Positions 2,434-34,553 of a stretch of 42,915 nucleotides of DNA are shown piece by piece. Position 1 is the first letter of the stretch; each line of letters starts with the position of its first letter. The notes beneath the pieces were generated by a model. It searched no databases. It was given only the letters and a program-made list of their open reading frames with translations, and was not told the origin of the DNA. Position numbers and translations under genes: made by a program. The stretch is from a virus. Taxonomy: Duplodnaviria; Heunggongvirae; Uroviricota; Caudoviricetes. The stretch lies in the IMG/VR virus record IMGVR_UViG_2579779116_000016, positions 1 through 42,915 of that record. One strand, 5' to 3'.

Positions 2434-4650
2434 TTATTGTATGTTTGTTATCTCTCCTGATACCATTGCTTTTATTGTCTGCCCGCCAGCTGGCTCTCCT
2501 TTGAGTACGAATCCCACCCTGCTAGTGTTTGAACCAAAAAGAAGATCTGCCCCTTTAGTTTGGTCGTAGAAAGTGTATGCATTGACGGTCCTCACCACTT
2601 GATCTGATGTTGTCACCCCAATTAATGATGTTTGACCATCCCTCTTAAGAAGTCCAGATAGTCCTGTAGATCTGCGCAAAGCGGCTGATATAGATATTGC
2701 GTAACCATCATATCCTGAAGGGGTTGATAGTTGAGCAAATCTTAGGAATTCAATACTTTGACCAGCTGCAGCAGTTGCATAGAGTCCATTGAAAATGAAT
2801 TTAGTAAATGATTGTCCACTTACGGTGGTGTCATAGCCTCTCTCGCAGGATAACGATTTAAACGCATATGTTGCATTTAGGAGTATTGTATTTTGTGATC
2901 TGGTAAGATTGTTTATCTTCATTGAAGGGAATTTCGACATATCTAGAATTCCATTTATCGATCCATTTCTGTCTGCTATGTCTATCTTTGTTTGTGTGTC
3001 TGTGTAATTGTTCTCAATGGTAAAAGATGAGAAAACACTAGGGTTGTCAATTTGATGGAATGTTTGACCAAAGTAATTACCGGAAATTGTGAGAGATTCT
3101 GGCTGGTTGTAGATGTATAGCTTGCTCTTTTCTACGTACATCCCAGTTACGCTTACGCCCTTGCAGTTTCCTATCTGTATTTCTCCGGACTCTACAGTGG
3201 AGTTGGTCAGGCTGATTCCCCATGTGTCAACGTAGACATCCTTCCCTGACTCGTGAGCATAGATAAGAGCGCTATCAAGTGTTAGCGTGTTTCCTGATAT
3301 TCCTGTTATTAACTTCGCATCAAGTCCCGCGTTTCCCTGAATCTCTATTATGTCCCACTTTAAAAAACCAGAAGCGCTTGCAACTGTTATCGAGTTGGCA
3401 CCTGCGGCAACATCTCTGGAAAGCGTCGTCTTTGGTGCATTGATGTTTATCGCTGCGGATCCAGATTGTCCGCTAGCTTGCAGGTAGCATCCCCCATGGA
3501 GTTTCACGGAGTTACCCCTCACTCTTACACCATTGAGGGTTCTTACTGAGCCGTTGATGGTTCCTGCAGTTTTCCCTGTGAACTCACCAACGATGCAGCA
3601 GATATCGACATCTGAAGATCGATGATTTACTGACTTGAAATCCCAGTGTCCATAAAACGCGTTAAGTACAACCCTGTCAGCGGCTAATGCCCCACGGGTT
3701 GAGACGCCGCCATCAATTGTAAATCCATCAACAATCTGGTCATGGTGAAGGCGGTCTCTCGATCTATCTCTTGGGTCAATGATTATATGGTGCATTGAGA
3801 TATCAGAAGATGTTGAGTTGAGGACTGTGCCGTCCTGACCAGCTCCAGACCACCTAAATCCTCTCTTGTCTACATCGAGCGTGAAACCTCCTATGCTGTA
3901 AACTCCGGCAGGGAAAGAAAGGCTCCTCATGTTTGCCTGCGCACGAGCAACACGGTTCCCCTCATCAACAGCTGCGACGTTTTCTACATCAGTGCCGCCA
4001 AACTCGAATGACGCATAGTTCATGTCAGGGAAACATACCAGATTGGCGTATTTACCTGCGGGCAACGTCAGGCTAAAAGTATTCAGATCCTGATTGGAGG
4101 AAATAACCCATTCTGATACGTTTTTTACTCCTTTCCCGTTCACGTACGTTCTGACGTGCATTCCATCTGGTACGCCACTAAAGTCTGTTTCCAGTAACTG
4201 TGTTACAGTTTCTATAGTGTAAATACGTCGAGACAAGGCGTTAGCAACGGTAGTGTCTAATGGGTCACCAACAAGAATTGATCCTGTACTCTCTCCGAGT
4301 CTTTGCTCAAGGCGATCAGGGTCATACTTCAGCACATTAGGAAAATAGAACTGCTGTGCACCATACGCATCATAAACAGCCATAGAATGGCCTTGCACAG
4401 TTACGAATTTGGCAATCTGTCCGTTATATACAGGATATCCAGCAGCGTTAATAATAATTGGTTGCGAAACAGGAACGTGAGAACCGTCTTCGTTCTCCAC
4501 ATAAACCTGAATCTGGTTTTCAGGATTTACAGGGTCAGTGTCAATTTTTCCGATATAAATTTTACCATTGGCTACGGCTTTAAAAGAACGCGCCATAGTG
4601 AAGAGTTGCGAAGGCATCGATACGATCACATTGGCTGTAATGTCTGTCAT
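2434..4650 (-). CDS. Tailspike protein: P22-type N-terminal head-binding domain fused to a distinct receptor-binding beta-helix domain
   Basis: 738-aa ORF; first ~110 residues ([11 protein letters not shown]...[33 protein letters not shown]...[12 protein letters not shown]...VLKYDPD) closely resemble the P22 gp9 head-binding domain; remainder is Gly/Ser/Asn-rich repeat typical of beta-helix tailspikes. Confidence 0.9.
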
Positions 4651-5796: not shown

Positions 5797-5864
5797 GTTG
5801 GTTTTTCTCCACGGATTTACTGACAACCGAAGCCCTGACTGTTCCCGCAGTTGGGGCTTCAACT

Positions 5865-30415: not shown

Positions 30416-31261
30416 TCACTCCTGCGCCCATGAAGGCATTTCAGTTTGCCCGTAATCTTTGGCGGCAAAGTTTTCCTGCATAGCTCGATGCTGCGGCCTC
30501 GGTTGAGATTTCCCCTTTGGAGTCTTGGGCTCAAAAATCCCCTGCCAACCACTGGCGATGCTCTGGTTTATAATTTCTTCAGGTGTATATCCCTTCTCCA
30601 GACTTCTGCTTAGAACGTTGATAGCCTGAGTGACACTTTGCTTAGACTTGATCGACTTACCTATCTCCTTGCGATAGGTAACCCACGACAACCATGTTTC
30701 TGCTGATAACCAATCAGGCAACTCTGTTTCTAGCGGGTCGAACTTCTGAGAAACTTTTTTGGGGGATATAGGGGGGTTATTAATATTTTCTTTTGTCTTT
30801 AAAGAATGTCTTTTGTGTGTCTCTAACTTCGAGACATTGAGTGTCTCTAATTTGGAGACATTTTTTGTCTCTAACTTCGAGACAAAGTTGCTAACTTGGA
30901 GACACTTGCTGAATTGCCACGCAGATACCTCCCTGTTTACACCGATTTTATTTCCATCCATAAACAGGCAATTCATTGAAATCAGTTCTTTTTTAGCCTT
31001 GTTAACATTCTGCCTTGACAGTCCTGTTAACTGAGCAATTTGCTCATCGGCTATTCGATCTGTTTTCTTATTGAAGCCATATGTTTTCCGGACGTAGGCC
31101 AGCATAACTTTCAACTGGCGAGCGGTTAAATCGGCACTTGCGATAGCTTCCAGCAGCTCGTTAGCGAATCTGGTGTAACCATCATCGATATCAGCCACTC
31201 TTAGCTCCTGTTCGGCAAAGTTACCTCTGCCGAAGTTGAGTATTTTTGCTGTATTTGTCAT
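30416..31261 (-). CDS. O: Replication initiator, lambda O-like N-terminal domain, with internal origin iterons
   Basis: 281 aa; N-terminus MTNTAKILNFGRGNFAEQELRVADIDDGY...LTARQ.KV.LA..RKTYG.NK..DRI.D.Q matches lambda O; iterons lie inside the coding sequence. Confidence 0.85.
   Translation of the reverse strand: MTNTAKILNFGRGNFAEQELRVADIDDGYTRFANELLEAIASADLTARQLKVMLAYVRKTYGFNKKTDRIADEQIAQLTGLSRQNVNKAKKELISMNCLFMDGNKIGVNREVSAWQFSKCLQVSNFVSKLETKNVSKLETLNVSKLETHKRHSLKTKENINNPPISPKKVSQKFDPLETELPDWLSAETWLSWVTYRKEIGKSIKSKQSVTQAINVLSRSLEKGYTPEEIINQSIASGWQGIFEPKTPKGKSQPRPQHRAMQENFAAKDYGQTEMPSWAQE
30818..30904. repeat. Replication origin iterons: four ~19-bp inverted-repeat units (TGTCTC-N7-GAGACA) at 24-bp spacing, followed by an AT-rich stretch
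   Basis: Units at about 30818, 30842, 30866 and 30888; adjacent AT-rich segment 30781-30815; located within the O-like gene as in ori-lambda but with a different iteron sequence. Confidence 0.75.
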
Positions 31262-31293: not shown

Positions 31294-31587
31294 TCAGAAT
31301 TCCATTTGTATTTGTTCAGAACGCTCGGTTGCCGCCGGGCGTTTTTTATTGGTGAGAATCGAAGCAACTTGTCGTGCCAATCGAGCCATATCGTCGTCAA
31401 CGACGCCCCATTCAAGAACAGCAAGCAGCATTGAGAACTTTGGAATCCAGTCCCTCTTCCACCTGCTGATCTGCGACTTATCAACTCCCACAGCTTCCGC
31501 TGTCTTCTCAGTTCCAAGCATTGCGATTTTGTTAAGCAACGCACTCTCGATTCGTAGAGCCTCGTTGCGTTTGTTTGCACGAACCAT
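31294..31587 (-). CDS. cII: CII transcriptional activator
   Basis: 97 aa MVRANKRNEALRIESALLNKIAMLGTEKTAEAVGVDKSQISRWKRDWIPKF..., lambda CII. Confidence 0.95.
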   Translation of the reverse strand: MVRANKRNEALRIESALLNKIAMLGTEKTAEAVGVDKSQISRWKRDWIPKFSMLLAVLEWGVVDDDMARLARQVASILTNKKRPAATERSEQIQMEF

Positions 31588-31705
31588 ATGTAAGTATTTC
31601 CTTAGATAACAATTGATTGAATGCATGCAAATAAATGCATACACCATAAGTGTGGTTTAATTTGATGCCCTTTTTCAGGGCTGGGATGTGTAAGAGCGGG
31701 GTTAT

Positions 31706-31915
<210 letters not shown>

Positions 31916-31932
31916 TTAGTACATGCAACTAT

Positions 31933-31996
31933 TATCACCGCTAGAGGTAAAATAGTCAACACGCACGGTGTTAGATATTTATCCCTTGCGGTGATA
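31933..31996. promoter_or_regulatory. Right operator oR1-oR2-oR3 with PR/PRM
   Basis: TATCACCGCTAGAGGTA (31933-31949), CAACACGCACGGTGTTA (31957-31973), TATCCCTTGCGGTGATA (31980-31996); lambda operator half-sites between cro and cI. Confidence 0.85.
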
Positions 31997-32003
31997 GATT
32001 TAA

Positions 32004-32720
<717 letters not shown>

Positions 32721-32806
32721 GTCTGCAGCAAGAGACTTTATACGCATCTAGATGTAGGAAATAAAAAAGAAGATCCCTACAATAAAAATAAGGAAATCAT
32801 TAAGAT

Positions 32807-33712
32807 ATGTCGATTAACAGCAATAGCGAATCCCTGCATCAAATGCAGCTTTTCCCTGTAGTAGAGGTTGTTTCTGATGATATTCCTATGGGCGTTCTCA
32901 ATGATGGAACTCCTTACCTAACTCTCTACGGTCTCGCAAAGTTATGCGGCATTGATGACACGCCACTGAGGGTGTTCACATCAAACTGGAACACAGAGAA
33001 AAACAAACCCAGAGGTCAAAAAGTAGCTGCGTATTTAGCTGAGAAAGGGTTTCATAACGTCGAAAAGCTATACACTCGCGTTATAAATAGCTCAAACGTG
33101 GAAACTCATGCTTATCCTGACTATGTTTGCATGGCTATCCTCCGTTACTACGCTCTAGATGCCACCAATTTTGATAGGTCAGTCGCAATAGGTAATTTTG
33201 TTCGCTTGGCTGAGTACACGCTTAAGCGAATGATTTATGAAAAGTCAAATTACAACCCAAATGCTTCAATAGATATCTCATTCGAGAACTATAGAGCAAG
33301 GATTAAACTAAACGATCAGATACCGACAACTCATTTTGCAGTATTCAGAGAGATAGCTGACATTGCCATGAACCTGATCGGAGGAGGATTCCCAATGGAT
33401 GACACCACATCTTTGGATGGAAGTGTTGGAATTCACTGGGGAAAGTATTGGACAGCTAATAGGCTATCTGAGAAATTCGGGGAAAGGGTGCAGTACCAAC
33501 ATCTATTCCCCGAAAATTACAGGCAGTCAGCTGCAAATAAGCATATAACAGCTTGGATTTATCCTATTGAGGCACTTGGCGTGTTCAGAAAATGGCTACA
33601 CGATAATTACGCAATGGAAAAACTGCCAAATTACCTTGGGAACAAAAAGATTAGTAACGCCTCCGAGCTATTAGAGTCGATAAAAAAACCAGCACTCCCA
33701 AATAAGCATTGA
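32807..33712 (+). CDS. Uncharacterised 301-aa protein occupying the rexA/rexB slot downstream of cI; candidate lysogen-expressed exclusion/defence gene
   Basis: AT-rich ORF 87 bp after cI stop, followed by an intrinsic terminator and oL/pL; N-terminal ~120 aa weakly resemble a Bro-N-type domain (DG.PY...LAKLCGI...), C-terminal half unassigned. Confidence 0.7.
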   Translation: MSINSNSESLHQMQLFPVVEVVSDDIPMGVLNDGTPYLTLYGLAKLCGIDDTPLRVFTSNWNTEKNKPRGQKVAAYLAEKGFHNVEKLYTRVINSSNVETHAYPDYVCMAILRYYALDATNFDRSVAIGNFVRLAEYTLKRMIYEKSNYNPNASIDISFENYRARIKLNDQIPTTHFAVFREIADIAMNLIGGGFPMDDTTSLDGSVGIHWGKYWTANRLSEKFGERVQYQHLFPENYRQSAANKHITAWIYPIEALGVFRKWLHDNYAMEKLPNYLGNKKISNASELLESIKKPALPNKH

Positions 33713-33724
33713 TCTCTACCACAA

Positions 33725-33750
33725 CCCGGCATCTGCGCCGGGTTTTCTTT
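33725..33750 (+). terminator. Intrinsic terminator downstream of the rex-slot gene (timm-equivalent)
   Basis: CCCGGC-ATCTGC-GCCGGG followed by TTTTCTTT. Confidence 0.6.
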
Positions 33751-33904: not shown

Positions 33905-33967
33905 AACCATCTGCGGTGATAAATTATCTCTGGCGGTGTTGACATAAATACCACTGGCGGTGATACT
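33905..33967. promoter_or_regulatory. Left operator oL3-oL2-oL1 and pL promoter
   Basis: AACCATCTGCGGTGATA, TATCTCTGGCGGTGTTG, TACCACTGGCGGTGATA with TTGACA (33939-33944) and GATACT (33962-33967); lambda-type. Confidence 0.85.
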
Positions 33968-34006: not shown

Positions 34007-34037
34007 TGCTCTTAAAAATTAAGCCCTGAAGAAGGGC
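34007..34037 (+). promoter_or_regulatory. nutL (boxA and boxB hairpin GCCCTGAAGAAGGGC)
   Basis: boxA-like GCTCTTA followed by the lambda boxB stem-loop at 34023-34037. Confidence 0.7.
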
Positions 34038-34220: not shown

Positions 34221-34553
34221 ATGGATGCACAAACACGCCGCCGCGAACGTCGCGCAGAGAAACAGGCTCAATGGAAAGCAGCAAATCCCCTGTTGGTTGG
34301 GGTAAGCGCAAAGCCAGTTAACCGCCCTATTCTCTCGCTGAATCGCAAACCGAAATCACGAGTAGAAAGCGCACTGAATCCGATAGACCTTACGGTGCTG
34401 GCTGAATACCACGAACAGATTGAAAGCAACCTGCAGCGTATTGAGCGCAAGAATCAGCGCACATGGTACAGCAAGCCACGCAGTGAAATGGGTGTGACTT
34501 GTGTTGGTCGCCAGAAAATGAAATTAGGCAGCAAACCACTGTATGAGGGGTGA
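34221..34553 (+). CDS. N: Antiterminator N
   Basis: Internal ATG giving MDAQTRRRERRAEKQAQWKAANPLLVGVSAKPVNRPILSLNRKPKSRVESALNPIDL..., lambda N; C-terminal ~20 aa diverge. Confidence 0.9.
   Translation: MDAQTRRRERRAEKQAQWKAANPLLVGVSAKPVNRPILSLNRKPKSRVESALNPIDLTVLAEYHEQIESNLQRIERKNQRTWYSKPRSEMGVTCVGRQKMKLGSKPLYEG

Follow-up and report, generated by a model that had tools for sequence, protein, structure and literature searches.

BstA is a prophage-encoded abortive-infection protein that localizes to phage DNA in the course of replication, which it blocks (Owen et al. 2021, PMC8585504). The gene is constitutively expressed in lysogens, and its product is suppressed by cognate aba DNA carried on replicating elements (PMC8585504). 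Three homologues have been tested, including BstA^Ec from Escherichia coli NCTC10963 (E4V89_RS07420); the experiments established the replication block with BstA^BTP1 and defence with BstA^Ec and BstA^Kp (PMC8585504). A 1,052-bp fragment of NCTC10963 gave P22 both defence and cognate self-immunity, and the homologue list in Table S1 of that study includes a further E. coli strain, O178:H19 2012C-4431 (CP024289) (PMC8585504). The self-immunity element is best characterized in BTP1, in which aba is a 63-bp DNA element comprising 29 bp upstream of bstA and the first 34 bp of the gene. Each of the CCCGCC direct repeats at its ends is required: a single G to T change in either one abolishes self-immunity, whether aba is supplied in trans on a promoterless plasmid or lies in the prophage, and the element acts as DNA, not as a transcript or peptide (PMC8585504). 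The aba elements of the BTP1, Ec and Kp variants provide no cross-protection, aba^Ec was localized only to the whole cloned locus, and a direct interaction between BstA and aba could not be demonstrated (PMC8585504). Our literature search found no follow-up paper dissecting aba.

The position of bstA also invites comparison with lambda. In their Discussion, Owen et al. noted that bstA occupies the slot between cI and N that holds rexAB in lambda, an interval described as a mosaic hotspot by Degnan et al. 2007, as cited in PMC8585504. Lambda RexA/RexB and BstA share this slot, from the cI stop codon to the terminator Timm, together with presumed co-transcription with the repressor and an outcome, abortive infection, that protects the lysogen population. 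The two systems otherwise differ: BstA is one soluble two-domain protein, whereas Rex consists of a sensor and a membrane protein, and BstA targets phage DNA replication, whereas Rex targets membrane potential (PMC8585504). In other phages with lambda-type immunity, the slot is filled by hicAB, by an NYN-domain gene or by a pair of hypothetical genes. One of the phages of Degnan et al. 2007, the wild lambdoid CL707 (EF120459), carries an open reading frame, CL70704, which was deposited in 2007 as a "hypothetical protein" of then unknown function.

We analyzed a tailed-phage sequence of 42,915 nucleotides (Caudoviricetes; IMG/VR record IMGVR_UViG_2579779116_000016, positions 1 to 42,915; hereafter, the window), in which a first-pass annotation made from the sequence alone had singled out a 301-codon open reading frame downstream of cI as a candidate for an undescribed single-gene prophage defence or exclusion function. 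The open reading frame, which begins with ATG, lies at 32807-33712 on the plus strand, between a lambda-like cI and a lambda-like series of terminator, oL/pL, nutL and N, just as had been described. The features of the locus, including those that we predict, are as follows.

32007-32720, plus strand: cI repressor of the lambda immunity type (237-aa open reading frame), the presumed source of transcription via pRM.
32721-33722, no strand assigned: bstA-aba cassette in place of lambda rexA-rexB, with breakpoints relative to lambda at 32720/32721 and 33722/33723.
32772-32786, plus strand: predicted aba^Ec repeat copy 1, GATCCCTACAATAAA, 35-21 nt upstream of the ATG.
32790-32799, plus strand: Shine-Dalgarno region, AAGGAAATCA, assigned from the sequence and locus comparison.
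32807-33712, plus strand: bstA coding sequence (301 aa plus stop), BstA^Ec-type allele, assigned from PHROGs, PADLOC, BTP1 BstA and the CP024289 homologue.
32829-32843, plus strand: predicted aba^Ec repeat copy 2, AATCCCTGCATCAAA, inside bstA codons 8-13.
32849-33256, plus strand: N-terminal domain (residues ~15-150), putatively DNA-binding and KilA-N/Bro-N-like, from the AlphaFold model and weak Foldseek matches.
33269-33691, plus strand: C-terminal domain (residues ~155-295), PF26567 BstA_C, from precomputed Pfam annotation of homologues.
33723-33744, plus strand: Timm-type intrinsic terminator ending the cI-bstA transcript, with an 8-bp stem (6 GC pairs) and a T run.
33905-33967, plus strand: oL3-oL2-oL1 operators and pL, from the sequence, a promoter scan and the CL707 annotation.
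34023-34037, plus strand: nutL boxB, from the sequence and the CL707 annotation.
34221-34553, plus strand: N antiterminator (translation beginning MDAQTRRRERRAEKQAQWK...), from the CL707 and RefSeq annotation.

Comparison with lambda by blastn placed the boundaries of the cassette at base resolution. Positions 31350-32720 of the window are 98% identical to lambda, a match that runs to the final base of the cI stop codon. Between 32721 and 33722 there is no homology; it restarts at 33723, where the Timm stem begins, a base that in lambda comes right after the end of rexB. A cassette of 1,002 bp therefore stands exactly at the position of the 1,400-bp rexA-rexB segment, and the claim that the gene "precisely replaces" rexA/rexB holds to the nucleotide. 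The start codon of bstA lies 86 bp past the cI stop codon on the same strand, with no strong terminator between them, and is separated from its Shine-Dalgarno sequence by a rather long 12 nt. The Timm hairpin is common to lambda and is annotated as such in CL707, and pL reads TTGACA-17-GATACT, with the -35 element at 33939 and the -10 element ending at 33967 in a promoter scan. RefSeq names the cI gene LexA family protein; upstream of it, the minus strand encodes cro, cII and an O-like gene. The O-like gene (30416-31261) contains tandem repeats encoding three copies of NVSKLET at 30760-30860, presumably lambdoid ori iterons. The description of the cassette gene as AT-rich applies only mildly: its GC content is ~0.39-0.43 across the open reading frame, as against 0.41-0.49 in cI and 0.52 in N. 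Two minus-strand open reading frames within bstA (42 and 48 aa) found no support.

The leader of N differs from that of lambda. Between 34055 and 34200 on the plus strand, a long outer stem (GCUUUGGGGUGUGGUG...CACCACACCACCAAAGC) is common to the two phages, while the interior is unrelated to lambda and contains a perfect T-arm-like hairpin, GCUGGUUCGACUCCAGC. The RNA is predicted to fold with unusual stability (MFE -62.3 kcal/mol, z = -4.87). We rejected a tRNA at this site: ARAGORN reported none, and Rfam gave only a sub-threshold tmRNA-like match (11 bits, E 0.23). CL707 appears to have the same variant leader.

The first-pass annotation could name no family for the 301-aa protein, and both PHROGs and PADLOC name it BstA. 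The PHROGs match is to phrog_6287, "BstA abortive infection system, replication inhibitor" (E 8e-133), and is full-length, aligning residues 5-301 of the protein with positions 3-304 of the 304-position profile; the PADLOC match has an E value of 7.7e-106. BstA of BTP1, the founding member, is 42% identical to the window protein over 307 columns (BLASTP, E 6e-83) and was also recovered, over 99% of the length, by tblastn of phage genomes. Among 5.8 billion proteins, a search recovered 115 homologues, each with a precomputed PF26567 (BstA_C) domain; they include the 90%-identity cluster that contains the window protein. Neither RexA nor RexB was matched in PHROGs, PADLOC, Pfam or NCBIfam, and the slot holds a single gene, not two.

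These results bear directly on the proposal that the gene represents a new family with an undescribed exclusion function. Speaking for it are scans of the protein against NCBIfam and a copy of Pfam-A that lacks the PF26567 model, neither of which gave a match, and the many database copies of BstA that are still labelled "hypothetical protein." Set against these are the full-length PHROGs and PADLOC matches, the identity to BTP1 BstA, the presence of BstA_C on all homologues and a homologue, identical at 298 of 301 residues, in the dataset of the founding paper. In newer RefSeq annotation, near-identical E. coli copies are labelled "BstA C-terminal domain-containing protein." We regard a new family as scarcely credible. 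The gene is an allele of bstA, a known prophage abortive-infection defence gene described in 2021, and is not novel. The first-pass annotation had itself named a confident match to a characterized exclusion protein as what would overturn its claim of an undescribed function, and the BstA match is of that kind; its functional guess, a single-gene prophage defence behind the repressor in the rexAB slot, was right, as judged from near-identity to a BstA homologue already on record. The placement of the gene was not new either, as the occupation of the rexAB position by bstA had been discussed in PMC8585504 and the layout had been deposited in 2007 with CL707.

An AlphaFold model of the two-domain window protein is confident (mean pLDDT 88), with a disordered, variable N-terminal tail in which residues 1-12 fall below a pLDDT of 50. 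BTP1 BstA residues 32-147 have been assigned as KilA-N(-like) (PMC8585504). Foldseek neighbours of our model in BFVD were weak (E 5e-5 to 0.2) and consisted mostly of antirepressors, "repressor domain" proteins, Bro-N proteins and KilA-N proteins; several were annotated Bro-N at E values of 0.016-0.2, and Pfam gave no Bro-N match. The resemblance of the N terminus to a Bro-N-type domain, already suspected in the earlier reading, thus has weak matches behind it. Foldseek against the PDB returned a best E value of 0.41, with nothing at or below 0.001, and a profile search of PDB sequences gave only a chance match to beta-galactosidase (E 0.75). Since the PDB searches by structure and sequence yielded nothing, the KilA-N assignment draws on the BFVD matches and on PMC8585504. 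Most of the invariant residues of the family fall in the C-terminal domain. We predict from comparative evidence that the variable N-terminal domain binds DNA and recognizes aba, and that the conserved C-terminal domain is the effector.

The character of the BFVD neighbours, together with the location of the gene in the immunity region, could also indicate an antirepressor or transcription regulator of the KilA-N/Bro-N type that has no role in defence. The matches concerned are weak, however, and most likely involve the N-terminal domain only, whereas BstA_C is specific to the family; moreover, expression of BstA^Ec or of either of two other homologues by itself was shown to block phage replication (PMC8585504). 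A purely regulatory role therefore seems to us very improbable.

Among characterized alleles, the closest is BstA^Ec. The window protein differs from the CP024289 homologue by only three substitutions (I93L, R219G and Q231P relative to CP024289), and within the first 150 nt from the cI stop codon, a stretch that includes both predicted repeats, there are two nucleotide substitutions and the repeat hexamers are identical. BstA^Ec and CP024289 are also like the window in lying directly after a lambda-type cI, with flanks that match the cloning primers; CP024289 differs by a small indel in a C/A-rich tract after Timm. The forward primer used by Owen et al. (2021) to clone bstA^Ec maps to 32721-32744 with one mismatch, so that it starts exactly at the cassette boundary; it has no mismatch to CP024289 and does not occur in the other E. 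coli allele group described below. From the primer positions and the near-identity to CP024289, it follows that the 1,052-bp NCTC10963 fragment corresponds to window positions 32721 to ~33775. We infer from the primers and the listed near-identical homologue that the window allele is BstA^Ec, and, by the same near-identity, that it would act in abortive infection by blocking the replication of phage DNA.

BstA^BTP1 is a more distant relative of similar design, a two-domain protein of ~300 aa, identical at 42% of positions from end to end, that likewise follows the repressor in a P22-like prophage and has a repeat pair straddling its start codon. It differs from the window in that BTP1 has an extra small gene between bstA and N, and in its repeat, which is CCCGCCA at a spacing of 56 bp, as compared with ATCCCT at 57 bp in the window. 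RexA/RexB, in contrast, have no sequence relationship to the window protein. Phage CL707 has the same layout: CL70704 encodes a 99% identical protein within the same order of cI, open reading frame, Timm, oL/pL, nutL and N, the whole immunity region being 96.7% identical to that of the window; the difference lies in the label, as CL70704 was entered without a function that can now be named.

Taken together with the published work, these comparisons lead us to conclude with high confidence that the P22-like E. coli prophage, whose immunity region is of the lambda type, carries at this locus a bstA-aba module of the BstA^Ec type for abortive infection and self-immunity. In a lysogen, bstA would most likely be transcribed by read-through from cI via pRM and end at Timm, a reading suggested by the lack of a terminator between the two genes and by the position of Timm after bstA. 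BstA would then be constitutively present. Upon infection by a sensitive phage, it would gather at the replicating phage DNA and block replication, and the cell would die without releasing progeny. When the resident prophage is induced, the cis-acting element aba, overlapping the 5' end of bstA, would suppress the cognate BstA and allow the prophage to replicate; such suppression was shown for BTP1 and, at the level of the whole locus, for bstA^Ec (PMC8585504). The window allele would be expected to behave as BstA^Ec does, its N-terminal domain reading both repeats.

The window itself is a P22-like prophage with CUS-3, phiv205-1, Kapi1 and Sf101 among its relatives. A sar RNA, the antisense RNA of the P22 immI region, is present at 5797-5864 on the plus strand (Rfam RF00262, 95.6 bits); with the immunity genes described above, it indicates that the prophage combines a P22-type immI/virion module with a lambda-type immC. 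Placement of bstA after a repressor, directly or one gene away, recurs in BTP1, in phage S137 and in Klebsiella and Pseudomonas phages, and bstA also follows the repressor on contigs of the Pantoea, Proteus, Xenorhabdus and Citrobacter types. In S137 (1989-2911 of the extracted locus), the homologue is annotated as two open reading frames of 768 and 189 nt and was recovered by tblastn in two pieces, which suggests a frameshift or sequencing error in bstA of phages S107, S135 and S137; the BTP1-type CCCGCCA repeats of the S137 locus are intact.

Within E. coli the cassette is rare, being found in 33 of 5,426 complete genomes. This rarity, and the split homologue of S137, would fit a decaying, non-functional moron left behind by mosaic recombination. 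Against decay, the open reading frame of the window gene is intact, it retains all 28 invariant and all 31 nearly invariant residues of the family, its structure model is confident, and the ribosome-binding site, terminator and both repeat copies are intact. The exact protein, furthermore, occurs on 145 contigs and belongs to a 90%-identity cluster of 206 sequences. We consider decay of the module highly improbable.

The bstA genes of E. coli genomes fall into two allele groups, whose differences are sharply localized. Aligned with a group-2 locus, the window is 95-100% identical in nucleotide sequence through cI (to 32711), drops to 40-55% across 32712-32839, which covers the intergenic region and the first ~11 codons, rises to 68-85% across 32840-33079 in the N-terminal domain, and is ~100% identical from 33080 through the C-terminal domain, Timm and oL. 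At the protein level, 23 of the 25 amino-acid differences between the groups lie in residues 1-87. In one group-2 example (NZ_CP033096.1), the divergent mosaic patch is seen when positions 3830-4200 of the extracted locus are aligned with window 32712-33080. The group-2 repeat pair, GATCtCAGcG and GATCgCAGgG (GATCnCAGnG), is also 57 bp apart. A cognate DNA-protein pair would be expected to diverge in just this way, with the differences limited to the predicted aba and the putative DNA-binding domain, and the pattern suggests exchange of a specificity module made up of aba and the N-terminal domain. The same NZ_CP033096.1 locus, from strain CP53, has an IS5 element (1827-2807) inserted in cro of the bstA prophage, leaving a cro fragment; this prophage is probably locked in lysogeny, with cI-bstA intact.

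The first-pass annotation missed the non-protein half of the module, the aba self-immunity DNA that overlaps the 5' end of bstA. In the window, a candidate for this element is bounded by an imperfect direct repeat with a spacing of 57 bp that straddles the ATG. The two copies lie at -118 and -61 relative to the codon for the invariant residue G29, and the validated aba pair of BTP1 lies at -118 and -62. The exact repeat spans only 6 nt (11 of 14 when extended) and is unremarkable on its own. The window contains three occurrences of a 10-nt core, RATCCCTRCA, where 0.31 would be expected, and two of the three make up this repeat pair; the third, GATCCCTGCA at 612-621 on the plus strand, lies inside the open reading frame at 1-1158, far from the locus, and is probably due to chance. 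Because the 6-nt repeat of the window is weak alone, its weight comes from the pattern across the family.

We examined this pattern in 80 non-redundant bstA loci from phages, E. coli and 80 species-representative genomes, which were tested blind. All loci were anchored on the codon aligned to the invariant G29, and spacings of 20 to 100 bp were scanned. Exact repeats of at least 7 nt were found at 56 bp in 17 loci and at 57 bp in 16, whereas control regions predict 0.7 and 0.8, respectively; spacings of 55 and 58 bp were at background level. After clustering of the proteins at 90% identity, 29 of 73 representatives were positive, carrying 28 distinct repeat sequences, as compared with 14 of 720 controls (P ~2e-30), and the enrichment persisted at 60% identity (7/25 versus 6/246 controls, P ~2e-6). 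The copies occupy fixed positions across loci, approximately -118 to -132 and -61 to -75 from the G29 codon, and about 45% of the loci have no exact repeat of at least 6 nt at the 56/57-bp spacing.

The repeated sequence itself varies from lineage to lineage, and the units recovered fall into the classes AAGGAAATCA(CC/GT), TTGGTCACC, GAGCAnCACC, GATCnCC, CCCGCCA and CCGCGCAC. Most loci of the window lineage share (G/A)ATC(C/T)CT(A/G)CA at both sites, 57 bp apart. Among the eight class-I loci, the copies match at 12-14 of 20 positions in six and at 9-10 of 20 in the Edwardsiella and Citrobacter-type loci, and in Pantoea and Proteus relatives the two copies share little beyond GATC. Some alphaproteobacterial loci have an extra partial copy at +21, which accounts for minor peaks in the spacing distribution at 21 and 36 bp. 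In these loci (L057, L060, L063, L067, L068, L088 and others), the unit AAGGAAATCA(CC/GT) is found ~60-140 nt upstream of the G29 codon; copy 1 is at the same time the Shine-Dalgarno sequence, with a partial copy, AATCA, 21 bp further on and copy 2 at 57 bp. The same decamer serves as a single ribosome-binding element in enterobacterial loci, including the window at 32790-32799.

Several other candidate features were set aside. The GATC in many enterobacterial copies raised the idea of Dam methylation, which we discarded, as the BTP1 aba contains no GATC and copy 2 of the window reads AATC. A third, central copy in the window amounts to only "ATC" at +21 and is not convincing. A hairpin at 32834-32848 (CTGCAT-caa-ATGCAG) that had been flagged as terminator-like lies inside the coding sequence and is conserved only in close relatives; it may be due to chance or form part of copy 2.

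On the strength of the family-wide pattern, we predict that aba^Ec is the ~72-bp segment 32772-32843, bounded by copies of (G/A)ATCCCT(A/G)CA..AAA that lie 57 bp apart. Copy 2 falls essentially in codons of the disordered, non-conserved N-terminal tail, where the DNA would be free to serve as a cis element. More broadly, we lean somewhat toward a model in which aba is a bipartite site throughout the family, tripartite in some lineages (0, +21, +57), with a fixed spacing of 56/57 bp and a locus-specific sequence. In this model, the site would overlap codons of the disordered tail and diversify together with the N-terminal DNA-binding domain, the two forming a specificity module that can be exchanged, and the C-terminal effector would stay constant.

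The pair separated by 56/57 bp could instead be an autoregulatory operator or a translational control site of bstA rather than a self-immunity element. It brackets the ribosome-binding site and start codon, copy 1 of the alphaproteobacterial loci is the Shine-Dalgarno sequence itself, and a DNA-binding protein acting on its own 5' region is the classic layout of autoregulation. In BTP1, however, point changes in the repeats abolish self-immunity, and aba acts as DNA (PMC8585504), so that regulation in place of self-immunity strikes us as unlikely, if worth keeping in view. The two functions are not mutually exclusive, and autoregulation is possible alongside the self-immunity role that we favor for the repeat pair.

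The gene, its family and its position had thus been described before, and the architecture of aba across bstA loci is a modest new extension. For the window, the lead from the first reading is closed, and the "hypothetical protein" label that most database copies bear is corrected. For the family, the comparative result may help with a question left open by Owen et al. (2021), namely how aba works: the constant 56/57-bp spacing, the variable repeats and the mosaic confined to aba and the N-terminal domain point to direct, sequence-specific recognition at two sites. If aba is indeed such a site family-wide, it would become predictable in any bstA locus, including aba^Ec at 32772-32843, and its recognition by BstA would be directly testable.
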